Origin: Candidatus Parcubacteria bacterium
GTDB lineage: Bacteria > Patescibacteriota > Patescibacteriia > Patescibacteriales > UBA12075
Assembly: GCA_963814275.1 (NCBI GenBank)
Contig: CAWFCE010000002.1
Coordinates: 1,003,263 to 1,067,262 of the forward strand
Direction: 5' to 3'
DNA length: 64,000 bases
In this document: positions 3-47,525 of the stretch, piece by piece
Layout: the number at the start of each line of letters is the position of its first letter
Position numbering within the stretch: the stretch's first letter is position 1
Program-made: the position numbers and the translations under genes
The notes under the pieces: generated by a model
What the model was told of the DNA's origin: nothing
Databases searched by the model: none
What the model saw: only the letters and a program-made list of their open reading frames with translations

Positions 3-1187
3 CAGGAGTTAGTTCTCGGTGATGTATCAAGGATATACGATGGCACACACCAAACTCCAGACTATGTTGAATCTGGTGTGCCTTTTTATAGCGTAGAACA
101 TGTAACATCAAATAATTTTTCTGATACTAAGTTTATATCCGAAGATATTTATTTAAATGAAAATGGAAGGGTGAGGGTAGAAAAAGGCGATATCTTAATG
201 ACTAGAATCGGTGATGTTGGGACAGCCAGACTTATAGATTGGGATGTCAAAGCGTCATTTTATGTATCGCTTGCTTTAATGAAGACCAATAATAAGGTGG
301 ACTCTAAATTTCTAGCTTATCAAATAAATTCTTATGAATTTATAAGAGAAATATGGGGAAAGACATTACATGTTGCATTTCCAAATAAAATTAATTTGGG
401 CGATATAAGTAAATGTAAAATAGTTCATCCACCCCTCCCCGAACAAAAACGGATCGTTAAGGTGCTGGAGGCTTGGGATGAGGTGATTGTGAAATTGACG
501 AGGAAGATTGAGATTAAGAAGAATATAAAAAAAGGTTTGATGCAGAGGTTGTTGACCCCGCCAAAGGGCGGGCAGGCGCCAAAGGTGCGGTTGCCGGGGT
601 TTACGGAGCCGTGGCAAAAATTAAAACTAGGGGAATGTATAAAAAGCGTCAGTAGCAGAAATAGAGATTTGAAAATTAACAGAGTTTTAAGCGTGACCAA
701 TAAAAATGGTTTTGTATTGCCGGCAGATCGTTTTGCAAGGGTAGTTGCCAGCGATGACCTTTCAAATTATAAGATAGTCAGAAAAGGACAATTTGCATAC
801 AATCCTTCTCGTATTAACGTAGGATCAATCGCGAGATTAGATAGCTACGATGAAGGAGCGCTTAGTCCTATGTATATAGTATTTAAAATTGAAAATTGTT
901 TAAATTCTGATTTTTTAAATCATTGGTTAAAAACCGGCGAGGCGAATTCACGTATTAGGAACATGGCCAGCGGGTCGGTGAGAGAGACTGTAGACTTTAA
1001 AAGCTTGTCCCTGATTAAGATTACACTTCCCGGAAGAGAAGAACAAGACAAAATAGCAGAAGTTTTAAACGTCTCGAATTCGGAAATAAATATACTGGAA
1101 AATAAATTGAATAAGTTAATAAACCAGAAGAAATATTTATTAAATAATTTAGTAACCGGGAGAATAAGAGTTCCGGAGAAAGTTTAA
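3..1187 (+). CDS. hsdS: Type I restriction-modification specificity subunit HsdS (5' end cut by window edge)
   Basis: Frame is open back to nt 3 (QELVLGDVSRIYDGTHQTPDYVESGVPFYSVEHV, a typical TRD start). Two variable target-recognition halves are separated by conserved helical spacers (PPLPEQKRIVKVLEAWDEVIVKL; LPGREEQDKIAEVLNVSNSEINILENKL). Confidence 0.85.
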   Translation, partial: QELVLGDVSRIYDGTHQTPDYVESGVPFYSVEHVTSNNFSDTKFISEDIYLNENGRVRVEKGDILMTRIGDVGTARLIDWDVKASFYVSLALMKTNNKVDSKFLAYQINSYEFIREIWGKTLHVAFPNKINLGDISKCKIVHPPLPEQKRIVKVLEAWDEVIVKLTRKIEIKKNIKKGLMQRLLTPPKGGQAPKVRLPGFTEPWQKLKLGECIKSVSSRNRDLKINRVLSVTNKNGFVLPADRFARVVASDDLSNYKIVRKGQFAYNPSRINVGSIARLDSYDEGALSPMYIVFKIENCLNSDFLNHWLKTGEANSRIRNMASGSVRETVDFKSLSLIKITLPGREEQDKIAEVLNVSNSEINILENKLNKLINQKKYLLNNLVTGRIRVPEKV

Positions 1188-1254
1188 TAAAAAATGTTAG
1201 GTGCGCAAGCGTCGGGATTGCTTCGTCGCTTCGCTCCTCGCAATGACATAAAAT

Positions 1255-4200
1255 ATGATTATTGAAGCTGATTTTGATGAAGCTAAACAGTCGCAGCTAC
1301 CGGCGGTGGAGCTGCTTATAAATATGGGCTATGTTTATTTGCCCCGGGAGCAGGTTATGGCTAGCCGCGGGGGTAATGCCGCGCGTTTTATTTTGAAAGA
1401 CATTGCTTATGAAAAATTGCGGGAGATCAATTCCTATGAATACAAAGGCGAAATATATAAATTTACCGATAAGAACATTAAGGACGCGGTTGATGAGCTC
1501 GATAATATCCAGCTGGAAGGGCTCATCGATACCTCCAAGGCGGTTTATGACATGATCATGCGGACCGGGGGCAAGACCATAACCGAAGTCGTGGACGGCA
1601 AAAAGACCTCGCAGAACTTCCGGTTTATCGATTTTGACAACCCGGCCAATAATATTTTCCATGTCAGCGTTGAATTCGAAGCCTCGGGCAAAGGCGATAT
1701 CCGGCCCGACATCGTCTGCTTCATCAACGGCATTCCGTTTGTCGTGATCGAAAACAAAAAATCCAGCGTCGATATAAAAGACGCGATCACGCAAATGCAC
1801 CGCAACCAGCAGCCGGAACACTGCCCGCGCCTTTTTATCTATCCGCAGCTTTTAATCGGCGCCAACAAATATAAATTCCAATACGGCACCACCGGCACAC
1901 CCGGTAAATTCTATACCGCCTGGAAAGAAAAAGGCTTGGCTGAAGAGGGCGTTACCGATAAAAAACAATTGGAACTGGACAAACAAGCCAGGCAGGCGGT
2001 TGAAGACAGGGCCAAAGAGCTGATCGCAAGGCCAATTGGCCAAGAAATTTATGCGCAAATACTGCGCGACCTAAACGGGGCGACCAAGAATCATACGCAA
2101 GTATTGGACCGCTTGCCGACTGAACAAGACAAGGGAATAGTTAGCCTACTTGAGCCGGCGCGCTTGTTCGAGCTCACCCGCAATTTTATCCTCTATGACG
2201 CCGGCATAAAAAAGGTGCCGCGCTATCAGCAATTTTTCGCCGTCAACAAAATCCTTCGGCAAATTGAGAGCGAAGAGCCGGGCAAGACCGGCGCGCGGCG
2301 CAAAGGCGGAATCGTCTGGCATACCCAGGGCTCGGGCAAATCGCTCACCATGGTGATGTTCGTCAAAGCCCTGATCGAGAAAAAGGAAATTGATAATCCG
2401 CGGATCATTATCGTAACCGACCGCCGGGATTTGAACAAGCAGATAGCCGATACTTTCCGGGATTGCAAACTGAAGAAAAAAGTCTATTCGCCCAAGAGCG
2501 GCCGGGATTTACTCCGGCAGATAAAAAATAAAAGCACGGACGTGATTACCGTGCTAGTGCATAAATTCGAAAGCGCGCGCTACTCCCGGGCGGACTTTTC
2601 TGATCCGGACAAGAATATCTTCGTGTTAATCGATGAGGCCCACCGCACCCAGGGCGGCGAGGCCAACCTGGAAATGAACCGCACTATCCCTAACGCCTGC
2701 TTTATCGCTTTTACCGGCACACCCCTCTTTAAAGAAGAAAAATCACAGCAGAAATTCGGCGAGTTTATCGACAAATACACGATCGACGATGCCTTGGCCG
2801 ACAAGGTGATATTGCCCCTGGTTTATGAGGGCCGCTATACGCAAATGAAGCAGGACCGGGAGAGAATGGACAAAAAAGTCGACCGCGTTTTAGACGGGCT
2901 AAAAACGGAACACAAGAAAATTCTGCAAGGCAAGGTGAGCGACGCGATTATCAAGAACAACCCCAACCGCATTACCGAAATCGCTTACGACATTGAACAG
3001 CATTTTATCGCCAATTTCCAAGGCACCGGCCTCAAAGGGCAAGTGGTTTCCCCTTCGAAATTTTCCGCCGTGCTATTTCAGGAGTATTTTGCCAAATCAG
3101 GCAAACTGGAACCCGGCGGTAGTGATATCAGACGTCGGCAGCAAAGAAGAAGACGAGGAAGACGATCACCGGAAACCGGTCCTTGATTTTCTAAGGCAAA
3201 AAAAGCATGAGTATAAAAGCCTGGAATCCTACGAAAGGCACGTAATCGACAGTTTTAAGAATAACCCGGACGGCGTCGAGCTGATTATCGTGGTCGACAA
3301 GCTACTTACGGGGTTTGACGCTCCGCGCAATACCGCCTTATGTGGCCAAAGACCTGCGCGACCACAACCTGCTCCAGGCGATTGCCCGGGTGAACCGCTT
3401 GTTCGAAGCCAAGCAACGCCGAAGACCTCCGGTTTTATCATCGACTATTCCGAAAATGCCAAGAATCTCGATACCGCCATGAAGCTATTCGGCAACTACG
3501 ACGATGACGATGTGAAATCCGCCCTGATCGATGTCAACGAAAAAATCCATGAACTGGAAAAGAGCTATGACATGCTTCATGAAATATTCAAGGATCTGAA
3601 AGGCACGCGCGACGATGAGGCCTACATCCAAAAATTATTCGAAGAGCCGGAGCGGGAGCTGTTTTACAAAGCGGTAAATGAATTTATTAAATTATTTAAC
3701 GAGTGCCTGGCTTTGCGGGAGTTTGCCAATGAATTCAAGGACCTCGACGTTTATAAAAATGAACTGGAAAAAATTCGATAATCTGCGGAAAACCGTCCGC
3801 ATCCGCTACGCCGATTCGATTGATTTTACCGAATACAAACAGCGTTTAGTTAAGATCCTTGATCAATACGTGGACGCCGAATCGGTGGAGATCATGACTA
3901 GGCAGATTAATATCAACGATAAAGAGGCGTTCGACCAGGCGATCGAAACCCTAGGGTCGAATAAGTCCAAAGCCGAAGCGATCGCCGCCCATACCAAGAA
4001 AACCATCCACGAAAGAGAGCATACGGATCCGGAATTCTATCGGCGTTTTTCCGACAAGATTGCCGATCTGCTCAATAAGCTGCACCAGAAGAAGCTGGAA
4101 GACCTGGAGGCCTTAAAGCAAATGAAAGAAATAAGCGCCCAGGTGATAAAAAAAGAAGATGAATCGATTCCGGCCGGTATAAAAAGTCCAAGGCGCGGAT

Positions 4201-4480
4201 ATATTTTACCGCAATTTACAATGTGAGTTTAAAAAGTATCGGCTTAGAGGGGGAAGCGTACAGTCAAATTATTTTAGACATATTCAGTCTGCTTAAAAAA
4301 GAAGCGATCGTCGATTGGTACCGGAATAGCGAGGTAAAAAGGATAATCACCAACAAAATCGATGACTATATTTATGACGAGGTAATTACCGAGCAAGGCA
4401 TAAAAATACCCAGCGAGGAAATTAAAAAAATAATAAATTCTATCATTGAGCTGGCGGTATTTAATCACGAAGTAATATAG
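1255..4480 (+). pseudogene. hsdR: Type I restriction enzyme R subunit HsdR, fragmented by multiple frameshifts
   Basis: Helicase motifs appear in the correct order but across changing frames: WHTQGSGKSLTMV (Walker A) and DEAHRTQ in frame 1; LLTGFDAPRNTAL in frame 2; YVAKDLRDHNLLQAIARVNRLFEAK in a third frame; then GFIIDY..., the C-terminal region, ADIFYRNLQ, and ...VDWYRNSEVKRIITNKIDDYIYDEV in further frames. Confidence 0.85.
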
Positions 4481-4532
4481 TATATATTCGCATGTCCCGC
4501 ATTTGTAGTGCGGGTGAGCGAAGCGAATAACA

Positions 4533-5252
4533 ATGACTAAACAGGTTTTTAGTTACGGCAAATATACTTATGATTATTATTTAATCAAGGAGGCGCGGCA
4601 AACGATCAGTTTGACCGTCAAGCCTGATTTGTCCGTGGTGCTCAAGAGCCCTATTGGCTACAGCAAAGAGAAAATCAATGCTTTTCTCAAGCGGAAATGG
4701 CTGTGGCTGGAAAAGCAGTTATCATTTTTTAAAAAGTTTCAGAATAATAATGGTAAAAAGGAATATATTTCCGGAGAAAGTTTTTTGTATTTGGGCCGGC
4801 AATATAAGTTGATTGTCTGCCAGGCCAAGAATAATCAGGTTAAGCTTGATCAAGGGAAGTTAATGCTGTTTACTAATGGTGGTGCGCGCAACGGCAAAAA
4901 TAATAAAAAAATTCTGGAAAAGTGGTACGAAGAAAAAACCAAGGATGTTTTATGCGCAAGATATCAAGAAGTATTGAAAAGTTTTAAAGTAAAAACAGTT
5001 CCTGATTTCGTTATAAAAAAAATGGATAAGCGCTGGGGCAGTTTTGTATCGAATAAAAAAATATTATTAAATCCTAAATTAATCCAAGCGCCGAAGTACT
5101 GCATCGATTACGTGATTACCCACGAGCTTTGCCACCTGGAGCGCAAGCGCCATGACAGCAATTTTTTTAAATTACTAGAGTCCAAGATTCCTAATTGGGA
5201 GAAGGTAAAGGAGAAGTTGGAGATGAAATTATTAACTGAAGGGAGGATGTAG
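4533..5252 (+). CDS. DUF45/YgjP-like (M48-type) zinc metallopeptidase, commonly linked to Type I R-M loci
   Basis: C-terminal HExxH motif (ITHELCHLERKRHDSNFFKLL) and overall YgjP-like layout; lies directly after hsdR. Confidence 0.8.
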   Translation: MTKQVFSYGKYTYDYYLIKEARQTISLTVKPDLSVVLKSPIGYSKEKINAFLKRKWLWLEKQLSFFKKFQNNNGKKEYISGESFLYLGRQYKLIVCQAKNNQVKLDQGKLMLFTNGGARNGKNNKKILEKWYEEKTKDVLCARYQEVLKSFKVKTVPDFVIKKMDKRWGSFVSNKKILLNPKLIQAPKYCIDYVITHELCHLERKRHDSNFFKLLESKIPNWEKVKEKLEMKLLTEGRM

Positions 5253-5260
5253 AAAATAAT

Positions 5261-6109
5261 ATGGGTGATGATATTATTGAGATTAAACCAAATTTTCATG
5301 GGTTGGGAGTAAATTTTAATGCTTTATATAAACGCATAATTAAAAAACAACCCAAAATTTCAGATATCCAAAATATCACTATGAGATTCGTACGAACATT
5401 CGAGGATCATGGTGTTGCTACCACTCAAATCCCACGATTAATCCCACAAATAAGCCTTGATAGCTTAAAAAATTTACCTGAGTCTTTAATCCCATCGCTT
5501 AATAATAAAGTAATTGATAAAGTTGTAAATTTATTTCAGATTAGACGCCAATGGATAGAAGGATTAAGCGTTCGGATGTATGATACATTGTGGTGTTATA
5601 AAAATCCTCATCGTTTTTTTAAAGATATCGCTAACCTTAATTTTAAAGAACCATTTTATTGTCCCATATTTGCTTTTTGCCAGTCAGATAAAATTGGTTA
5701 TAAACGATTTCGTGGTCAACCAATCGTTCTTGTACTTAACGAAAAAATTGTGGATTTGGATGATAATGAAATAAATCGATACAGAATTTATATGGATAGT
5801 TGGGACTGGGGATATTGGAAATGCCGTATACAATTAAAAGCCATGGTGCGTGTATTGTATATCCTCAAAGAAACTATAGTGCCTTTGTATAAAGTTAGTC
5901 CGGAGATTTTGGAAAAGATTAAGTCTGGTCGTCAAGTTCCGCATTCGTATATGATTGGAGCTAAGCGCTTACAAAATCTTTCACTTGAAGATTTTGTTTT
6001 GTATCCAAATGAAAGTGCAGTGTCCAAGGAATCAGATGAACTTGTTCAAGTTGAGAATTATATAGATAATTTCGATTTAGAAAATTTCGCTCGTAAAATA
6101 TTAAATTAA
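5261..6109 (+). CDS. hypothetical protein (282 aa), visibly AT-richer than neighbours
   Basis: Long uninterrupted ORF starting 9 nt after the DUF45 stop; no motif I recognise. Confidence 0.5.
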   Translation: MGDDIIEIKPNFHGLGVNFNALYKRIIKKQPKISDIQNITMRFVRTFEDHGVATTQIPRLIPQISLDSLKNLPESLIPSLNNKVIDKVVNLFQIRRQWIEGLSVRMYDTLWCYKNPHRFFKDIANLNFKEPFYCPIFAFCQSDKIGYKRFRGQPIVLVLNEKIVDLDDNEINRYRIYMDSWDWGYWKCRIQLKAMVRVLYILKETIVPLYKVSPEILEKIKSGRQVPHSYMIGAKRLQNLSLEDFVLYPNESAVSKESDELVQVENYIDNFDLENFARKILN

Positions 6110-6155
6110 TATTTAAAATTAATCTATATTATAATTTATATTACTTTTCAAACCT

Positions 6156-6395: not shown

Positions 6396-6854
6396 ATGTC
6401 AAAAAATATGAAACCAATTAAAACAATCGCCGGGAAAGTTCTTTTGTATTTTTATTATGTGCAAAGGACAGATACGGCCAAACTCTTTGATTTGGTTTTG
6501 AATTTCCAGATGAGAGACTTAAATAGCCGACAGGAAGAAATGCCCATCTTGGGAAGAACAGATACTTTGGTCCAAAAAAATCTATTAAAGCTTACCGATA
6601 CTGCCAATAACCTATTTAACGCCCTTCGGTATTTGAGGGACTTGGATTTTATCGAGATGAAATACTCGCCGGACAGAACCAACGATCATTTTTCCCTCTT
6701 CCGCGTCAAGTCCGGCGGGGTGGACGCTATCGAAGCAATCCTCAGGGGCAAAGAAGAAAAAGAGGAGTTTTATACTACATTTAACATCAAGCTACCTGAT
6801 AAAACCGATATTGAGAGCCTGCTTGAAAAACAGTTAGGCAGTTTGTATGAATGA
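6396..6854 (+). CDS. hypothetical protein, paralog A (possible winged-helix-like)
   Basis: ORF is about two-thirds identical by eye to 7789..8235. The true start may be the second Met (MKPIK, nt 6408), as in the paralog. Confidence 0.6.
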   Translation: MSKNMKPIKTIAGKVLLYFYYVQRTDTAKLFDLVLNFQMRDLNSRQEEMPILGRTDTLVQKNLLKLTDTANNLFNALRYLRDLDFIEMKYSPDRTNDHFSLFRVKSGGVDAIEAILRGKEEKEEFYTTFNIKLPDKTDIESLLEKQLGSLYE

Positions 6855-7069: not shown

Positions 7070-7137
7070 GTTTGTCTTTGGAGTTTTTGGTATAATAAAA
7101 TTAATCTATACTATAATCTAGATTATTAAATAATGAT

Positions 7138-7627
7138 ATGACCAGAAAAAAAATCGAGGATATTATTGTCCGGCGGGCAAAAATAAAAGACATCGATGAT
7201 CTTCGTATATTGTACATAGAATTTATGAAATACCACGGCCGTATTGACCCGTTGTTGAAGATCACGAGTAAACCGGACGAAGAGGCGGCAAAGTATTTAA
7301 GAAAAACCATATACGGACGGGATACTATTTTGTTGGTGGCGGAAAGATCCGGCCGCATCGTCGGTCTTTTGGGCGCCGGGGTTAGCAAAATCCCTCCGAT
7401 TTACCGTTATCGTGATTTTGGGGTTATTTTCGACTTGTTTGTGTCAGGAACCACATCGCAGGCAAGGCATAGCCAGGCTAATGGTCCAGACTGCATTGGA
7501 TTGGTTCAAAGAAAAAGGAGTCAAAAGAATCGAAGTGGGGATGAGCGCCGCCAATGAACCGGCCATAAAGACCTGGGAAGGGCTCGGCTTTCAAAATGTT
7601 TTCTTTCGCAAGAGAAAAATAATATAG
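7138..7627 (+). pseudogene. GNAT family N-acetyltransferase with one frameshift near nt 7440-7450
   Basis: The N-terminal part (…RSGRIVGLLGAGV…VIFDLFVS) and the acetyl-CoA-binding part (QEPHRRQGIARLMVQTALDWFKEKGVKRIEVGMSAANEPAIKTWEGLGF) lie in different frames. Confidence 0.75.
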
Positions 7628-7788
7628 ATTATAATCTGGATTAAAACCGAAAAATTTTCTTTCCATTTGCCAAGAAAAAAATAAAATCCCGCCATGATGC
7701 TTTGGTAAAAATTATTGGTTAAAAAATTAATTAAATTACCCGCCTTCGTCCTTCGACAGGTTCAGGACTACGGCGAGGCAAGGAATAT

Positions 7789-8235
7789 ATGAAACCAATC
7801 AAAACGATCGCCGGGAAAGTTCTTTTGTATTCTTATTTTGTCCAAAGGACAGATTATGCCCGACTCTATGACACAGCTTTTAATTTTCATATGAGAGACT
7901 TTAATGCAAGACAAGAAAAAATGCCCATATTGGGCGGGAAAGATAGTTCGACCATAAAAAATCTATTGGAACTTACCGATAATGACAATAACCTTTATAA
8001 TGCCCTTAAGTATTTGGAGGACAAAGGTTTTATCTCCATGAAATGCACTTCGGACAGGGTTTGCGATCTTATTTCTGAGCTCCGCGTCTTATCCAACGGG
8101 GTGGATGTGATAGAAGCCATCCTAAGGGGCGAAAAAGAAAGACAAGAGTTTTATACTACGTTTAACATCAAGTTAGTGGATAAAATCGATATTGAGGGCC
8201 TGCTTGAAAAACAATTAGGCAGTTTGTATAAATGA
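7789..8235 (+). CDS. hypothetical protein, paralog B of 6396..6854
   Basis: 148-aa ORF with AAGGA upstream of the ATG. N-terminal 14 aa and C-terminal ~45 aa are nearly identical to paralog A. Confidence 0.6.
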   Translation: MKPIKTIAGKVLLYSYFVQRTDYARLYDTAFNFHMRDFNARQEKMPILGGKDSSTIKNLLELTDNDNNLYNALKYLEDKGFISMKCTSDRVCDLISELRVLSNGVDVIEAILRGEKERQEFYTTFNIKLVDKIDIEGLLEKQLGSLYK

Positions 8236-8264: not shown

Positions 8265-9036
8265 GGGTTCAAATAATGAACCCCTACGACGCGGCGGCCC
8301 TCACCCGCCACGGGTGCGACCGGGGCACCCTCTCCCACTCGCGCGGGTCGCGGGAGAGGGAAAATAGGAAAAACATATTATATCGCGATATCGTGTAGGG
8401 GCACAGGATTCTGTGCCCTGGTGTTAGGATGATGAAGATGGTATGGACGCGTAATGGTTTGAAAAGAAATCTATTCGTCTTTAAACCTTCGTGGAACGGG
8501 TTCAGAATCCTGAACCCCTACAGATCGGGTTATAAACGGACGGGGGATACGCGGGTTCAGAATCCTGAACCCCTACAAAATATATAAGACATTGTATGCG
8601 CCGCGTAGGGGCACAGGATTCTGTGCCCTGGTGTTAGGACGATGATGATGGTATTGACGCGTGATGGTTTGAAAAGAAATTAATCATATTTAAACCTTCG
8701 TGGAACGGGTTCAGAATCCTGAACCCCTACAGATTGGGTTATAAACGGACGGGGGATACGCGGGTTCAGAATCCTGAACCCCTACAGATCGGGTTATAAA
8801 CGGACGGGGGATACGCGGGTTCAGAATCCTGAACCCCTACAAAATTGACAAGACATTGTATGCGCCGCGTAGGGGCACAGGATTCTGTGCCCTGGTGTTA
8901 GGACGATGATGATGGTATTGACGCGTGATGGTTTTAAAAGAAATTGTTCGTATTTAAACCTTCGTGGAACGGGTTCAGAATCCTGAACCCCTACGACGCG
9001 GCGGCTTCGCCCGCTTGCGCGGGTCGCGGGAGAGGG
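8265..9036. repeat. REP-like hairpin array 1 (7 class-A and 3 class-B hairpins in about 3 higher-order units)
   Basis: Class A GGGTTCAGAATCCTGAACCCCTAC at 8265 (degenerate), 8498, 8553, 8707, 8762, 8817, 8971. Class B GTAGGGGCACAGGATTCTGTGCCC at 8395, 8605, 8869. Confidence 0.95.
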
Positions 9037-9143
9037 GAGATGGGGGAAATATATAATGCGTATGGGTTTGAGGATTTCGTGCTTTGGCAATATTTTGCGA
9101 AAAATAGCTATTAGGAGGTTGATAGAGACAAACGGAAATTAGT

Positions 9144-9176
9144 AAAAAAAATGACGTCATCGGGGGATGACGTCAT
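9144..9176 (-). terminator. Rho-independent terminator for the minus-strand small-protein pair
   Basis: atgacgtcat-cggggg-atgacgtcat hairpin with a 7-nt U-run on the minus strand. Confidence 0.65.
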
Positions 9177-9215
9177 ATGTTTTACAGGTATTTTAAAGGA
9201 CGTGTTAGATTGGCA

Positions 9216-9482
9216 TTAATCTTCGTTGTTGTTGTCGCAAACAACGCAGGAGCCGCCATCCGTTATATGGCCGCAGGATGAACATCTGATCGGATCGCCT
9301 TCGTCGTTTCTCGTTCTGACAAACCTTGTTGTTTCATAATTTCTCTTGCTGGACATTGTCTTCGGTTGGCCAGAAGAATTTGCTTTTTTGCTCCCGGTTG
9401 TTCCGGAATCTTGTTTGCTCCCCTTTGAAGCAAGAATAAAGATAAATACTACGATAAACAATATTATCCAAAATCCTTCCAT
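9216..9482 (-). CDS. small membrane-anchored zinc-ribbon protein (88 aa)
   Basis: AAGGAG SD; N-terminal TM helix (FWIILFIVVFIFILA); C-terminal CSSCGHIT-x5-CVVCDNN. Confidence 0.65.
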   Translation of the reverse strand: MEGFWIILFIVVFIFILASKGSKQDSGTTGSKKANSSGQPKTMSSKRNYETTRFVRTRNDEGDPIRCSSCGHITDGGSCVVCDNNNED

Positions 9483-9501
9483 TTATATTCTCCTTTTTGT
9501 G

Positions 9502-9759
9502 TCAATCATTGTTGTCGCAGTATGAGCAGTATCCATCATTAAAAGTGACGTTACCGCAAGTTGAACAGATTTTTCCCTCGCTTTTACTGTTTGGTTCTAC
9601 ACTTGAGTGATAGATGGCACTATATGGTTTTGTGTATTTTTCCGCCTCCTTTGCCCTTACTTTTTTCTCTGTGGGTTTGTCCTTGCCATTCTTGCCGCCC
9701 AGGGCCAGTAAAATCAATAAGCCAAAGATGAATAACGCGATCGATGCTTCTCCGGACAT
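9502..9759 (-). CDS. small membrane-anchored zinc-ribbon protein (85 aa), tandem paralog of 9216..9482
   Basis: AGGAGG SD; N-terminal TM helix (IALFIFGLLILLAL); C-terminal CSTCGNVT-x5-CSYCDNN. Confidence 0.65.
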   Translation of the reverse strand: MSGEASIALFIFGLLILLALGGKNGKDKPTEKKVRAKEAEKYTKPYSAIYHSSVEPNSKSEGKICSTCGNVTFNDGYCSYCDNND

Positions 9760-10015
9760 TTTGCACCTCCTTGATTGATAGTTGTATATTGGATTTTGGT
9801 GTTGAACAATTATTTTATTTCAATATCACATTTGCATGATAACGATTCAGTATATATTATTCCATTATAAAATGTCAATTTTGCCAAAACATATTATTTA
9901 TTCAGATAGGTTTATTCGCCAATTATGGCCATTTTTGCTATAATGAAATTAATCTAGACCATGATCCGGTTTATAATTAATTCCGAAACACTCGGTACCA
10001 TACAGAAAAACAAAT

Positions 10016-10483
10016 ATGAGCGTCCAGGAGATCGTAAAAAGAGGAAAATTGACGCCTAAGGGCGTGGCAAGAGTCCTCAAAATAATAGATAAGTATATGT
10101 TTATCTTGAAATATGCTTACTTGGACGCGAAAAACTCCCGTACCTATTGGGAACAGGCCAAAGAATATTATGAACATGAAGATTGCGACGAATCGGACAC
10201 CGATAATCTATATTATCTGGCGATAAAAATAAGCGCGGCCAAGAAAGAATTGTTTTATATTTACGCCAAAGACGTTTTCGAGTTTTTCTACGTCAATTAC
10301 CGGGAAAAAGCGGATGAATATTACTACCACCAATTCCCCCTGGACAGGAAGCGCTACGAAAAAGAGCGCGTACCCATAGCCAGATTAAAACCCCTGTTGG
10401 ACAACAAGAATTATCTGGACGAGGAATTTGTAAATCTGATCGAAGAAACCGCGGCAGTGTTCCATAAATGCCTGAAGAAATAA
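10016..10483 (+). CDS. hypothetical protein (155 aa, Tyr/Glu-rich)
   Basis: ORF only; a TGcTATAAT promoter-like element lies upstream at 9937-9944. Confidence 0.5.
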   Translation: MSVQEIVKRGKLTPKGVARVLKIIDKYMFILKYAYLDAKNSRTYWEQAKEYYEHEDCDESDTDNLYYLAIKISAAKKELFYIYAKDVFEFFYVNYREKADEYYYHQFPLDRKRYEKERVPIARLKPLLDNKNYLDEEFVNLIEETAAVFHKCLKK

Positions 10484-10497
10484 CAAGTCCGTGCATA

Positions 10498-11139
10498 GGG
10501 TTCAGAATCCTGAACCCCTACAAAATTTCGAAAAATGCTATATTTAAATTAATATTAAATATGGACTCAAGGAGGAGGAAACAAATACGATTGTTGGATT
10601 ATGATTATTCGCAGGAAGATGCTTATTTCATCACCATATGTACAAACAATCGAATTTGTCATTTCGGTGAAATCAAAAATGATAAGATGTTATTGAATAG
10701 TACCGGTAAGGCCGCGGATTATTATTGGCAGGAAATTCCGGCACATTATCCGAGGGCGGTCTTAGACGAATATACCGTTATGCCCAATCATATTCACGGT
10801 ATAATTATTATCGACAAGGATCACGATACGTCTGTGAACAGGGAATTTCCTACGCAATCAGCGCAACCGGATGATTCGATTAACCGGTTCCAACACATAA
10901 TTCCGAAATCTATCGGGTCAATAATTCGGGGGTATAAACTAGGCATGACCAAATGGGTCAGAGAACATACAAAAACCAATACGATATGGCAACGGTCATA
11001 TTATGACCATATCATCCGCGACGAGAAAGCAATGGACGAAATCAGGGCATATATTATAAATAATCCCGGCAATTGGGATAACGACCGAAATAACCTTAAA
11101 AATTATCACCCAACCGTAGGGGCACAGGATTCTGTGCCC
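10498..11139 (+). mobile_element. RAYT unit: class-A hairpin, Y1 transposase gene, class-B hairpin (IS200/IS605-like architecture)
   Basis: Class-A hairpin at 10498-10521 and oppositely oriented class-B hairpin at 11116-11139 bracket the transposase ORF. Confidence 0.8.
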
Positions 11140-11148
11140 TGGTGTTAG
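10561..11148 (+). CDS. REP-associated tyrosine transposase (RAYT), IS200-like Y1 HUH family
   Basis: MDSRRRKQIRLLDYDYSQEDAYFITICT… N-terminus typical of the family; HUH motif MPNHIHGII; catalytic Tyr region WQRSYYDHIIRDE. The track start at 10468 would read through the upstream hairpin, so Met at 10561 is preferred. Confidence 0.85.
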   Translation: MDSRRRKQIRLLDYDYSQEDAYFITICTNNRICHFGEIKNDKMLLNSTGKAADYYWQEIPAHYPRAVLDEYTVMPNHIHGIIIIDKDHDTSVNREFPTQSAQPDDSINRFQHIIPKSIGSIIRGYKLGMTKWVREHTKTNTIWQRSYYDHIIRDEKAMDEIRAYIINNPGNWDNDRNNLKNYHPTVGAQDSVPWC

Positions 11149-12200
11149 AACGATGACGATGGTATTGACGCGTGATGGTTTTAAAAGAAATTGTTCGTAT
11201 TTAAACCTTCGTGGAACGGGTTCAGAATCCTGAACCCCTACAAAATTGACAAGACATTGTATGCGCCGCGTAGGGGCACAGGATTCTGTGCCCTGGTGTT
11301 AGGACGATGATAATGGTATTGACCCGAAATGGTTTGAAAAGAAATTAATCATATTTAAACCTTCGTGGAACGGGTTCAGAATCCTGAACCCCTACAGATC
11401 GGGTTATAAACGGACGGGGGATACGCGGGTTCAGAATCCTGAACCCCTACAAAATTGACAAGACATTGTATGCGCCGCGTAGGGGCACAGGATTCTGTGC
11501 CCAGGTGTTAGGTTGATAAAGGTGGTATTGACGCGTAGTGGTTTGAAAAGAAATTATTCGTTTTGAAAATCTTCGTGGAGCGGGTTCAGAATCCTGAACC
11601 CCTACAGATCGGGTTATCAACGGACGGGGGATACGCTGGTTCAGAATCCTGAACCCCTACAAAATTGACAAGACATTGTATGCGCCGCGTAGGGGCACAG
11701 GATTCTGTGCCCAGGTGATAAGATCAATAAGGATGATTTTAACGCGTGATGGTTTGAAAAGAAATTAATCGATTTAAAAACCTTCGTGGAACGGGTTCAG
11801 AATTCTGAACCCCTACAGATCGGGTTATCAACGGACGGGGGATACGCGGGTTCAGAATCCTGAACCCCTACAAAATTGACAAGACATTGTATGCGCCGCG
11901 TAGGGGCACAGGATTCTGTGCCCAGGTGATAAGATCAATAAGGATGATTTTAACGCGTGATGGTTTGAAAAGAAATTATTCGTTTTGAAAATCTTCGATG
12001 ATCGGGTTCAGAATTATGAACCCCTACAGATCGGGTTATAAACGGACGGGGGATACGCGGGTTCAGAATCCTGAACCCCTACAAAATTGACAAGACATTG
12101 TATGCGTCGCGTAGGGGCACAGAATCCTGTGCCCAGGTGTTAGGACGATAACGATGGTATTTACGTATTATGGCTCGAAATGATATAAATCATTTTGGGC
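11116..12200. repeat. REP-like hairpin array 2 (9 class-A and 6 class-B hairpins in about 5 higher-order units plus a degenerate tail)
   Basis: Class A at 11218, 11372, 11427, 11582, 11637 (tgg variant), 11793, 11848, 12004, 12059. Class B at 11116, 11270, 11479, 11689, 11900, 12111. Confidence 0.95.
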
Positions 12201-12365
12201 ACTTCCTCACCCAGGATTCAGGATGTCTGATCGATGCAGGATATATCCATTTTATTGACATAGACGCCTTCGTCCCGTAAACGCGCATAACAGGTGATTT
12301 TTGCCTACTGGCCGTTAAAAGGATATAATTATATTAAAGGTTATTATTCAATTGATTAATCGATT

Positions 12366-13317: not shown

Positions 13318-13944
13318 ATGGCGATAGCTGTGAGAAATTACGGTACTATAATGGCTGGAAAAAAATATAACAACAAGGATCTGGTGCAGGGGGCCGGCAG
13401 CCTTTGGCTGTTGGTCATTGTTGTTATTTATTTTGGCGACCGGAGAATATTCTATCAGGTTTTGGTCTTGAGCCTGATCGCCCTGGGCCTTTTGTTGGGA
13501 TTGGTGGCAATAGTCAGGAAAAGGCGCTTTGGCCATATTCTGGAACAATCAGACGGACAACGGCAATTGGCAAAGCTTAGACAGATGAAGCCGGATGAAT
13601 TCGAGGACTTCATCGCCGACCTTTACCGCCGCCTGGGCTATGCGACCGAACGGGTGGGCGGCTCGCCTGGCGGAGGCATAGACGTCACCGCCAAAAAGAA
13701 CGGAGTGATATACTATATCCAGTGTAAGAAATTCATAAATTCAAAAGTAACCATCCATAATGTCCGGGATTTTTATGCTACGATGGCTAATAATCTGGCT
13801 GCCGGCAAAGGCATATTCATCACCACCAATATATTCACCGCAGAGGCGATCAAATTTGCCGCAGACAGGCCGTTGGCATTGATCGACGGAGTTAACTTAT
13901 TAACGCTAATAAAACAGGCCGGGAAAGACGATCAACCAACCTGA
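13318..13944 (+). CDS. membrane-anchored restriction endonuclease-like protein (Mrr_cat-type domain)
   Basis: Two N-terminal hydrophobic helices, then FEDFIADLYRRLGY…GGIDVTAKKNGVIYYIQCKKF…VRDFYATMA…GIFITT, matching the Mrr catalytic-core pattern. Start codon uncertain. Confidence 0.65.
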   Translation: MAIAVRNYGTIMAGKKYNNKDLVQGAGSLWLLVIVVIYFGDRRIFYQVLVLSLIALGLLLGLVAIVRKRRFGHILEQSDGQRQLAKLRQMKPDEFEDFIADLYRRLGYATERVGGSPGGGIDVTAKKNGVIYYIQCKKFINSKVTIHNVRDFYATMANNLAAGKGIFITTNIFTAEAIKFAADRPLALIDGVNLLTLIKQAGKDDQPT

Positions 13945-45263: not shown

Positions 45264-47525
45264 ATGAGCAAAAAAATAACGTCTTTTTTTGGTATTTTAT
45301 TTATTTTTCCAATGGTGGCAGGGCTTTTTTGTCCGGCCTTGCCCTGCATGGCTTTGGCCGAAGAAAATGGGCTGGACCGTGAATTGGAATTTCCACACCA
45401 GAGCGAAATTATCGTTAAATACTACGGAATAGACGAGTTGAAATATATCCGGTTCGAAGAAGATGAACTCAGGGAGAAACTAGAATATTTCCGCTCCCTC
45501 GAGGATGTCGAGTATGCCGAATTGAATTATCTATATGACGCGTCGATCATTCCCTCCGATACGTTCTACTCCAATCAATGGTACCTGCAAAAAATAAAAG
45601 CAAAAGATGCCTGGGATTATGTGCGAGAGAGCGCAAATATCGTAATCGCGATAATAGACAGCGGTGTGCAAATCAGCCATCCCGACCTGGCCGATAATAT
45701 CTGGCGCAACAGCGGAGAGATCCCCGGCAACAATATCGATGATGACCATAACGGCTACATAGATGACCTAAACGGCTGGGACTTCGTCAACAATAGCTCC
45801 CAGCCGACCGTTAAATTCAACGATGGCTATACGCTGGACGGGGTTTTGCACGGCACGATAGTGGCCGGAGTGGCCGCCGCTTCGGGAAATAACGGAATCG
45901 GAGTCAGCGGTATCACCTGGAATGCCCGGATCATGGCGCTGAAAGCGCTGGATGACCAGGGCTCGGGCGACTCGAAAAATGTTGTCCGGGCGATCGATTA
46001 TGCCGTCGCGAACGGAGCCGATATCATCAATTTGAGCTTTGTCGGCCATGGATTCAGCCAAAGCCTGCAAAACGCGATTCGTAACGCGTACCAGTCGGGA
46101 GTGCTGGTCGTAGCTGCGGCCGGGAACGAGCAGGGACAAGGCAATGGGATAGATATCGACAATGAACCGATCTATCCCGCCTGTATGGACGGTAATACAG
46201 GGGAAAACATGGTTATTGGCGTCAGCGCTACCGACGCCCTGGACCAGAAAGCGAATTTTTCGGGATACGGTTCGAAATGCGTCGACATATCCGCTCCGGG
46301 TGTAAGTATTTTTAGCACTTCTGTCTATGCGCCCGACAAGGAGGTCGACGGGAAAGTTCTGAATAATTATTATGACGGATATTGGGCGGGCACTTCCATG
46401 GCCACTCCGATGATCAGCGGCGCATTGGCCCTGGTTACGGCAGCCAATCCGAGCTTGTCACCGGCGGAAGTGAGGGATTCATTGCTGTCAACGGCTGATT
46501 CTATCGAACGGTTGAATCCCGAGTACCATGGTATGCTTGGAACGGGACGGGTAAACGTGCTGCAGGCGGTGACCAGAGCCAGGACGCTCTTAGAGAACCG
46601 GAAAGTTGAGCTTATATTATCGCCTTATCAGGACAGGAACGGAGTCGTGGATCTGACGGACAGTAAAGGCGATAAAATCAAGGAATTTTCCGCCTACACC
46701 GAGAATTATAAAAATGGGATAAGCACCGCCAGCGGCGATGTTGACGGTGACGGCAAAGACGAAATTGTCACCGGCACAGGCAACGGCGGCGGCCCGCAGG
46801 TACGCGTTTTTAATGCCGATGGCGAGCCTAAGGGGCAGTTTTTCGCCTATGCTGAGAATTTCCGGGGAGGCGTGAATGTCGCGGTAGGGGATATTGACGG
46901 GGATGGAGTGGATGAAATAGTAACCGGAGCTGGAAACGGCGGCGGTCCGCATATAAGAATATTCAATGATCGCGGTGATCTTATGGGCCAATTCTTCGCC
47001 TATGACAAGAATTTCCGGGGAGGCGTGAATGTCGCGGTAGGGGATATTGACGGGGATGGAGTGGATGAAATAGTAACCGGAGCTGGAAACGGCGGCGGTC
47101 CGCAAGTGCGCATTTTCGATCGCCATGGCAATGTGGAAGGCCAATTCTTCGCCTATGACAAGAATTTCCGGGGCGGAGTCAGGGTGGCAGTAGGCAGGTT
47201 AAGCAGGGGGTCGGGCAATAGCATGAATATTATTACCGCGCCCGGCCAGGGCGGCGGACCCCACATCATCGTATATGACAATCATGCCCGTGCAATATCC
47301 CAGTTCTTCGCCTATAGCGAACAATTCCACGGCGGTGTTTCGATAGCCGCGGCTGATATTGATTCCGACGGGCTGGAAGAGATAATCACCGGTGCCGGTC
47401 CGGGAGGGACGCCGCATGTGAGATGTTTTGAAACTAACGGGCAGTTATTGGAGTCTTTCTATGCCTGGCCGCCCGATTTTACCGGAGGAGTAAATGTATC
47501 GGCAATAACATTGTCGGCTGGATAA
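45264..47525 (+). CDS. secreted S8 subtilisin-like serine protease with C-terminal FG-GAP/VCBS-type repeats
   Basis: Signal peptide; catalytic D (AIIDSGV), H (HGTIVAGV), S (GTSMATP); at least 5 repeats of FFAY..NFRGGV.VAVGDIDGDG.DEIVTGAGNGGGP. Confidence 0.9.
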   Translation: MSKKITSFFGILFIFPMVAGLFCPALPCMALAEENGLDRELEFPHQSEIIVKYYGIDELKYIRFEEDELREKLEYFRSLEDVEYAELNYLYDASIIPSDTFYSNQWYLQKIKAKDAWDYVRESANIVIAIIDSGVQISHPDLADNIWRNSGEIPGNNIDDDHNGYIDDLNGWDFVNNSSQPTVKFNDGYTLDGVLHGTIVAGVAAASGNNGIGVSGITWNARIMALKALDDQGSGDSKNVVRAIDYAVANGADIINLSFVGHGFSQSLQNAIRNAYQSGVLVVAAAGNEQGQGNGIDIDNEPIYPACMDGNTGENMVIGVSATDALDQKANFSGYGSKCVDISAPGVSIFSTSVYAPDKEVDGKVLNNYYDGYWAGTSMATPMISGALALVTAANPSLSPAEVRDSLLSTADSIERLNPEYHGMLGTGRVNVLQAVTRARTLLENRKVELILSPYQDRNGVVDLTDSKGDKIKEFSAYTENYKNGISTASGDVDGDGKDEIVTGTGNGGGPQVRVFNADGEPKGQFFAYAENFRGGVNVAVGDIDGDGVDEIVTGAGNGGGPHIRIFNDRGDLMGQFFAYDKNFRGGVNVAVGDIDGDGVDEIVTGAGNGGGPQVRIFDRHGNVEGQFFAYDKNFRGGVRVAVGRLSRGSGNSMNIITAPGQGGGPHIIVYDNHARAISQFFAYSEQFHGGVSIAAADIDSDGLEEIITGAGPGGTPHVRCFETNGQLLESFYAWPPDFTGGVNVSAITLSAG

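Follow-up and report, generated by a model that had tools for sequence, protein, structure and literature searches.

Introduction

GTAG-type repetitive extragenic palindromes (REPs) consist of a GC-rich stem-loop of 20–40 nucleotides (nt) whose foot is immediately preceded, on its 5' side, by the conserved tetranucleotide GT[AG]G (PMC3733652, PMC3333891). Genes for REP-associated tyrosine transposases (RAYTs) lie in every case between inverted REPs, and one third of them lie in modular bacterial interspersed mosaic elements (BIMEs; PMC2817692). In some genomes, REPs accumulate only near the rayt gene, and in the proposal of Nunvar and colleagues a basic module is copied by a rolling-circle process, with new REPs arising beside a recently acquired rayt (PMC2817692). 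For the Escherichia coli enzyme, TnpAREP, the BIME is given as the functional unit in two reports, which also place cleavage at CT and describe GTAG as required (PMC3333891, PMC3479197). An inverted REP pair is its reported substrate unit, and tandem BIME products were made by TnpAREP in vitro (PMC3333891). REP clusters consist of dimers reiterated in tandem, with heterodimers of different stems being known (PMC3733652), and tandem arrays that alternate two REP types were described in Pseudomonas fluorescens SBW25 (PMC3116915). Here, we analysed a 64,000-nt stretch of DNA from a Candidatus Parcubacteria bacterium (GenBank assembly GCA_963814275.1, contig CAWFCE010000002.1, positions 1,003,263–1,067,262 of the forward strand), hereafter the window, which is part of a 1.27-Mb genome and carries a RAYT gene amid a cluster of REPs at positions 8265–12240.

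We consider it likely that this locus is a REPtron, with a single RAYT gene lying in a BIME-like modular array of cognate GTAG REPs, and that the closely spaced inverted REP pairs within it, hereafter doublets, were multiplied by in-situ amplification of modules. The locus is of a known kind: its GTAG REPs, REPtron and BIME-array features fit existing descriptions and do not challenge current models. An initial annotation had regarded the doublets as gene-less miniatures of the RAYT element that are mobilised by it in trans.

The REPs and their array

Two hairpins recur in the window, namely A (GGGTTCAGAATCCTGAACCCCTAC), with 16 copies on the + strand at up to two mismatches, and B (GTAGGGGCACAGGATTCTGTGCCC), with nine copies; the number of matches expected in shuffled sequence is zero. 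All intact copies of both lie within 8395–12134. Together with three decayed copies, the 25 intact REPs are confined to 8265–12240, i.e. about 4 kb around the RAYT gene, and no REP-like site was detected in the other 60 kb of the window, even by a loose search. Reverse-complementing A gives B, apart from two compensatory changes in the stem (TT/AA to CA/TG). Both hairpins have a perfect 8-bp stem starting with GGG and a 4-nt loop. On the + strand, B reads GTAG followed by GGGCACAG-GATT-CTGTGCCC; on the − strand, A reads GTAG followed by GGGTTCAG-GATT-CTGAACCC, which appears as CTAC on the + strand. The tetranucleotide is found at the stem foot of each, and the common stem base GTAG-GGG...CCC provides three G–C pairs after GT[AG]G. 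Both hairpins fold stably as single-stranded DNA (ssDNA), at z-scores of −4 to −5 relative to shuffled sequence. The two represent a single GTAG-type REP read from opposite strands, and an A followed after 28 nt by a B is therefore a tail-to-tail REP heterodimer.

The REPs are arranged according to a regular grammar, B-78/80-A-(31-A)n-28, where the numbers are spacer lengths in nt. It is repeated in eight modules of 154–264 bp, distributed over two arrays. Module sizes of 154, 209–211 or 264 bp correspond to 154 + n × 55 bp, with zero, one or two extra A-31 units (a 55-bp sub-repeat) per module. In Di Nocera's terms, the A-28-B junctions are tail-to-tail, with GTAG/CTAC pointing inward, the B-78-A junctions are head-to-head, and the A-31-A junctions are head-to-tail. 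Alternating REP orientation, regular spacing, conserved linkers and tandem repetition are all BIME-like features. The constituents of the locus are as follows.

8265–8287, − strand: A', a decayed A-type REP (GGGTTCAAATAATGAACCCCTAC) at the left edge of array 1, 29 nt past the stop codon of the gene at 7789–8235
8288–8394, no strand assigned: C element, 107 nt of GC-rich spacer that separates A' from the B at 8395 and contains the hairpin CCCTCTCCC...GGGAGAGGG
8395–8994, + strand: array 1, three modules of the form B-78/79-A-(31-A)n-28, with B starting at 8395, 8605 and 8869
8995–9087, + strand: C' and B'', the right edge of array 1
10498–10521, − strand: A-type REP directly upstream of the RAYT gene, followed by AAAATT
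10561–11148, + strand: gene for a RAYT/TnpAREP-like Y1 HUH transposase of 195 amino acids (aa), with HUH histidines H77 and H79, whose last codons read through B
11116–11139, + strand: B-type REP (GTAG + hairpin), the first REP of array 2, situated at the 3' end of RAYT
11116–12134, + strand: array 2, five modules with B starting at 11116, 11270, 11479, 11689 and 11900, and a closing B at 12111
12135–12240, + strand: decayed terminal linker and remnant of an A hairpin, which extend the array homology about 100 nt past the last doublet

The 78-nt linkers are homologous among all modules, and the array tapers off into decayed REPs and linker instead of stopping at a clean doublet. At the right edge of array 1, C' (8995–9059) is a shorter copy of the C element, 65 nt in length, that follows the A at 8971, and B'' (9060–9087) is a decayed B with mostly C-to-T changes. 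The C element is the third kind of spacer within a tail-to-tail A...B pair, of which two occur at the edges of array 1, so that the A...B frame holds three contents: the 28-nt spacer, the C element and the RAYT gene. With the sequence GACGCGGCGGC...CGCGGGTCGCGGGAGAGGG, the C element is present twice in the window, each time directly after an A hairpin, and may be a second kind of repeat. A CRISPR (clustered regularly interspaced short palindromic repeat) array was considered in view of the 24 + 31-nt periodicity and rejected, as the 31-nt and 28-nt "spacers" are near-identical copies rather than unique sequences. The GTAG heads of the B type are all on the G-rich strand and those of the A type all on the other; of the 32 2-kb bins of the window, 29 show positive GC skew and the other three values near zero, which places the window probably within one replichore.

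The RAYT gene and its cassette

The A at 10498–10521 and the B at 11116–11139 bracket 594 nt that contain the RAYT open reading frame (ORF), with GTAG/CTAC facing the gene. This interior starts with AAAATT and ends with ...CCCAACC, and in the array grammar this segment stands exactly where a 28-nt spacer would be. To its left, the RAYT-proximal A has a flank (CGTG...) similar to the one seen beside the A that comes first in a module. As proposed in the initial annotation, the RAYT element and the doublets have the same ends: both hairpins are identical (24/24 nt for A and 24/24 nt for B) and tail-to-tail, and the first six nt after A (AAAATT) are common to both.

The gene product was identified as a Y1 HUH protein of the TnpAREP type by family, profile and fold matches. 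It scored 24.7 bits against the Pfam family Y1_Tnp (cut-off 23) and 54 bits against the NCBIfam model REP_Tyr_transpos (E = 1.2e-14), the latter below the cut-off of 80. A single-sequence search of the PDB with the protein gave no match; a profile of 37 homologues retrieved E. coli TnpAREP (PDB 4ER8) with E = 3.8e-6, and the HUH motif and the tyrosine were aligned. In this alignment, PNHIH is matched with PEHMH, and Y164 in AYIINNP with Tyr 115 in DYIYINP (Y-I-x-x-N-P), which we take to be the catalytic residue of E. coli TnpAREP. The AlphaFold model of the protein had a predicted local distance difference test (pLDDT) value of 84.5, and its top Foldseek match was again 4ER8, followed by the TnpA structures of IS608 and ISDra2. 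The window protein is only distantly related to E. coli TnpAREP, with 18% identity in the structural alignment. Y115 of the E. coli enzyme is named in PMC3479197. The sequence and fold matches to TnpAREP, together with the inverted cognate REPs on either side, identify the gene as a RAYT in a REPtron (PMC2817692, PMC3333891).

The A-28-B doublets

The array contains seven cases in which an A is followed by a B after exactly 28 nt, a spacing that had been given in the initial annotation and held at all seven positions.

8553–8628, + strand: doublet 1, the example of the initial annotation, with spacer AAAATATATAAGACATTGTATGCGCCGC, which has three substitutions and lacks TTGACA
8817–8892, + strand: doublet 2, with the consensus spacer
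11218–11293, + strand: doublet 3, unique among the doublets in that its A comes first in the module, with left flank CGTGGAAC as at the RAYT-proximal A
11427–11502, + strand: doublet 4, A-28-B
11637–11712, + strand: doublet 5, with one mismatch in A
11848–11923, + strand: doublet 6, A-28-B
12059–12134, + strand: doublet 7, with a single spacer substitution and two substitutions in the loop of B

The 28-nt spacer string reported previously is exact in five of the seven doublets. The hexamer TTGACA had been ascribed to every spacer and suggested as a −35 element for outward transcription; it was found in six of the seven and is missing from the very example cited (8553–8628), and no −10 partner was detected 16–18 nt from any spacer TTGACA, so the promoter proposal was not supported. 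Minimum-energy ssDNA folds of the doublet form A and B as two separate hairpins; pairing of A with B is conceivable by hand alignment, at the cost of three mismatches and one G–T pair.

All doublets are embedded in larger homologous modules, and within the window none was found outside the array. By the refuting condition given in the initial annotation, doublets confined to the tandem array, the mobile-miniature hypothesis is refuted within the window. The view of the doublet as an internal deletion of the present cassette also failed: apart from the shared AAAATT, the other 22 of the 28 spacer nt matched the 594-nt RAYT interior, its right end included, no better than shuffled sequence did on either strand.

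Further copies were sought in other sequence collections. The 28-nt spacer had no match in a metagenome scan, and the cassette and two modules had none in BLAST searches against plasmids and phages; a scan of viral contigs gave four single matches. No comparable doublet emerged from a generic scan of metagenomes for tail-to-tail doublets, which required CCTG/CAGG loop ends and missed GAATTC loops; it returned one unrelated long palindrome (L050). In 411 kb of loci, mostly from genomes with the same REP, the pattern was fitted by one pair of double-foot REPs (GTAG...CTAC) 83 nt apart and by one chance palindrome.

Sequence divergence between modules was assessed with HHn denoting the nth B-78-A unit. 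Neighbouring modules are the most alike, with HH7 and HH8 differing by 0.09. The closest pair, HH3 and HH4, differ by 0.03 and flank the 2.2-kb block C'-three genes-A-RAYT. The closest likeness among neighbours and between the block-flanking HH3 and HH4 points to exchange between whole modules. Within modules, conservation is uneven. In one module pair, the A-31-A-28-B block differs at 2 of 131 positions vs. 19 of 80 in the B-78-A linker (p = 2e-7), and variable columns number 6 of 59 vs. 33 of 81 (p = 5e-5). A covariation test of the 78-nt linker for a head-to-head hairpin, of the type found in REP doublets forming hairpins (REPINs), gave zero compensatory pairs and was uninformative.

Comparison with described systems

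In the E. coli REPtron/BIME-2 system (tnpAREP/yafM; Ton-Hoang 2012, PMC3333891; Messing 2012, PMC3479197), a Y1 HUH gene is likewise flanked by cognate REPs. BIME-2 also shows a 5' GTAG with a hairpin, two inverted and alternating REP types, short and long conserved linkers and tandem repetition, and, as a further point of likeness, the inverted pair is the functional unit of the enzyme. Unlike the E. coli REPs, those of the window have no stem mismatch and include the extra head-to-tail A-31-A sub-repeat. Moreover, the E. coli REPs are spread over hundreds of loci, whereas all copies seen here lie beside the gene.

TnpAREP proteins of subclass 2.4 (Quentin 2018, PMC6006769) have an in-gene REP, "double-foot" REPs and a GGG stem base as hallmarks, and the subclass occurs scattered across many phyla. 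The stem start, with three G–C pairs after GT[AG]G, is common to this subclass and to A and B. The homologues of the window protein at 42–56% identity nearly all carry an in-frame REP between HuH and Y, and double-foot GTAG...CTAC REPs are present in the genome loci. In contrast, the window gene is devoid of an internal REP, and the REPs around it have a single foot, form heterodimers and are amplified in tandem. The presumed kinship with subclass 2.4 is based on similarity and not on Quentin's own models.

In P. fluorescens SBW25 (Bertels & Rainey 2011, PMC3116915), the REPINs and the GI–GIII arrays likewise feature inverted doublets that are more conserved than their surroundings, with a RAYT nearby. 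These arrays alternate two REP types at two fixed spacings, 112 and 72 bp, which compare with 78 and 28 bp here. REPINs are characterised by over-representation, random extragenic dispersal and excision reads, whereas every doublet observed here is in the array. In addition, Pseudomonas doublets are head-to-head, according to Di Nocera (PMC3733652), and those of the window tail-to-tail, and the spacer is invariant here, whereas in REPINs it varies more than the REPs do.

In three marine gammaproteobacteria and a betaproteobacterium (Nunvar 2010, PMC2817692), cognate REPs likewise gather near rayt rather than genome-wide, which those authors took to mean that new REPs form close to a gene acquired recently. 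The present case differs in host lineage and REP sequence, and its cluster spans 4 kb.

Palindrome-associated (PATE) and miniature inverted-repeat (MITE)-like derivatives of the IS200/IS605 family are short elements that keep both structured ends of an autonomous HUH-transposase element. In the locus described here, the interior of the short form does not derive from the long form, of the short form no dispersed copy is known, and the flanking hairpins are inverted REPs and not same-strand ends of an insertion sequence.

Proposed mechanism and alternative explanations

By analogy with the E. coli enzyme, the RAYT protein would bind GTAG plus hairpin on ssDNA, cleave at C|T near the partner inverted REP or in a linker, and then rejoin the strands; the + strand of the 28-nt spacer is itself free of CT. 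Whole modules would be amplified beside the gene, either through many local rounds of cleavage with strand transfer or through unequal exchange from module to module. In this view, the doublet would be the smallest inverted-REP unit to serve as substrate, and would correspond in structure to the RAYT cassette without its gene. The seven doublets would reflect in-situ module amplification and not doublet transposition to new sites; indeed, as the doublets are inside homologous modules and homology continues past the last of them, the copies look like products of amplification in place rather than of independent insertions.

Several points weigh against this REPtron interpretation. Conservation of the A-31-A-28-B block exceeds that of the B-78-A linker in these modules 8- to 15-fold, an excess that plain duplication of whole modules with neutral decay does not predict. 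An extra factor is needed, be it recognition constraint, homogenisation or renewed copying of the block, and this is the surviving part of the mobile-miniature idea. Dispersed copies are possible beyond the window, elsewhere in the genome. E. coli TnpAREP needs a mismatch in the stem (PMC3333891), whereas the 8-bp stems of the present hairpins are perfect, so the recognition rules may differ. Finally, the role ascribed to the enzyme here is by analogy with E. coli TnpAREP.

The alternative favoured by the initial annotation, which we regard as unlikely, holds that A-28-B is a REPIN- or PATE-like non-autonomous deletion derivative of A-RAYT-B, mobilised in trans by the RAYT, with the array representing accumulated insertions or the source of a dispersed population. 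Part of it stood up to analysis. The doublet and the cassette have hairpins, orientation and AAAATT in common, the A...B frame accommodates three different contents, TnpAREP uses an inverted REP pair as its substrate unit (PMC3333891), and the doublet block is far more conserved than the linker, as found for the REPIN doublets of SBW25 (PMC3116915). The mobility itself fared less well: no REP occurs beyond the 4-kb cluster in 64 kb, all doublets are in the array, and the sequences between them are mutually homologous and hence not independent targets. The 22 unmatched spacer bases oppose derivation from the RAYT interior, the metagenome scans returned no copy of spacer or doublet, and only one pair of double-foot REPs and one chance palindrome fitted the pattern in 411 kb of loci. 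Both the tail-to-tail orientation, compared with the head-to-head Pseudomonas doublets of Di Nocera (PMC3733652), and the predicted ssDNA fold into two hairpins instead of a long one also depart from this model. A passive minisatellite, in which modules are multiplied by replication slippage or RecA-dependent unequal crossing-over without RAYT catalysis, the RAYT being inactive or domesticated, would account for tandem modules that vary in 55-bp sub-repeat number and for the greater similarity of adjacent ones. It would also agree with the description of RAYTs as typically single-copy and domesticated (PMC5581495). We deem it about as improbable as the mobile miniature, given that the array is exactly around the cognate RAYT with the gene in a spacer position of the grammar, that the predicted catalytic HUH and Tyr residues appear intact, and that the conservation of REPs and short spacers against a decaying linker argues for constraint or recognition.

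A function at the level of RNA or transcription, with the repeats serving as an outward promoter (through TTGACA), a terminator or a 3' hairpin that stabilises the mRNA of the upstream genes and of RAYT, seems very improbable. The arrays do begin just downstream of two + strand genes (7789–8235 and RAYT), the hairpins are as stable as reported above, and mRNA stabilisation and termination by REPs were reported in other bacteria (PMC3733652, PMC3333891). Against these stand the missing −10 elements, the doublet devoid of the hexamer, the absence of a T-run after the hairpins, none of which is terminator-like, and the lack of an Rfam match; in addition, 25 copies and the RAYT link would be left unexplained. 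Rather doubtful, too, though less so, is the notion that, in this small genome, the locus serves as a REP "nursery" that is young or active to this day and in which the RAYT re-copies or homogenises the A-(31-A)n-28-B block, and not the whole module, beside its own gene, with the A...B frame acting as a general cassette for different contents. If this were true, the locus would capture the birth stage of a REPIN-like population and a RAYT of the subclass-2.4 type whose REP moved from the interior of the gene to its flanks.

As the REPtron we favour, the locus adds a cleanly organised example, complete with BIME-like array, from a genome that is small and not represented otherwise, and possibly an early-stage REP cluster. 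It is useful for understanding how REP arrays grow, since all REPs seen are beside the gene and the block of REPs and short spacers is conserved relative to a decaying linker. Its perfect short hairpins with fixed 28-nt and 31-nt spacers would make simple substrates for work in vitro.

Relatives of the RAYT and occurrence of the same REP elsewhere

The next relatives of the RAYT protein, at the identities given above, come from many phyla. For other proteins of the window, the best match of the Mrr protein had 68% identity and was on a 4-kb contig, and no homologue was found for the 279-aa downstream neighbour. No tested protein had a relative above 68% identity among 5.8 billion clusters; judged from these comparisons, the lineage appears to be without close sequenced relatives.

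Nearly all listed RAYT homologues (P0002–P0122) have an in-frame REP peptide between the HUH motif and the following helix, with sequences such as VGVQNFEPL, VGAQNSEPL and VGAKNFSPL, and in some the copies, tandem or partial, number two to four. The DNA that encodes this peptide is a palindrome of the form GTAGGGG-stem-loop-stem-CCCCTAC (L044 5947–5974, L037 625–652, L025 221–248). A search of the window RAYT for a decayed remnant of such an internal REP gave no significant match. In the two closest RAYT homologues with context (L051 and L052, inspected over ±10 kb), there is an internal REP only and no array; both are also beside genes for Eco57I-type methylase/endonuclease and PLD-SNF2 helicase.

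A hairpin scan of a genome collection detected the same REP in 49 loci (L001–L049) from many phyla, with no array among the matching loci. The two variable stem positions are complementary in 67 of the 69 REP copies counted, some palindromes having perhaps been counted twice; the search pattern allowed 16 combinations at these positions, four of them complementary. The REP of 24–28 nt, GTAGGGG(TT/CA/CT)CAGAATTCTG(AA/TG/AG)CCCCTAC, is nearly unchanged across these loci, whose phyla include Bacteroidota, Fibrobacterota, Omnitrophota, Patescibacteria, Planctomycetota, Desulfobacterota and Cyanobacteria. The copies are mostly double-foot and solitary; several genomes, among them Emticicia and one metagenome-assembled genome (MAG) each of Desulfomonile, Fibrobacteres and Bacteroidia, contain more than one, with conserved flanks. 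In a Magnetocorallium MAG (L005 1141–1553), only the N-terminal 76 residues of a RAYT homologue are left, with double-foot REPs on either side, and the gene appears to be truncated at its internal REP.

Genomic neighbourhood

Upstream of array 1, the genes at 6396–6854 and 7789–8235, which encode 152 and 148 aa, are paralogues with about 75% DNA identity over 300 nt, and the second is the one that ends 29 nt before the first decayed REP. Neither matched a Pfam or NCBIfam family. An AT-rich 43-nt repeat (...TATAATAAAATTAATCTATACTATAATCTAGATTAT) precedes several small genes (6102–6144, 7084–7126, 7602–7644 and 9932–9974) and looks like a shared promoter or operator region. The overlapping ORFs at 7138–7557 and 7412–7627 may be one frameshifted gene; our impression from the sequence is that 7138–7627 could encode an acetyltransferase, and ORF 7138–7557 matched no Pfam family. 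Between the arrays, two adjacent paralogous small proteins are encoded on the − strand (9216–9482 and 9502–9759), each with a hydrophobic N-terminal segment and a C-terminal CxxC...CxxC motif, and the pair is followed by a perfect 11-bp palindrome resembling a bidirectional terminator (9151–9176).

The wider surroundings (78–5249 and 13318–13944) are rich in defence genes, with HsdS and HsdR of a type I restriction-modification system, a YgjP-like gene and an Mrr-type endonuclease. HsdR is seemingly split into the overlapping ORFs 1255–3186 and 2993–3781. Further away, a subtilase/FG-GAP gene at 45264–47525 contains a 153-nt coding tandem repeat (46761–47173; 2.7 copies with 81% matches).

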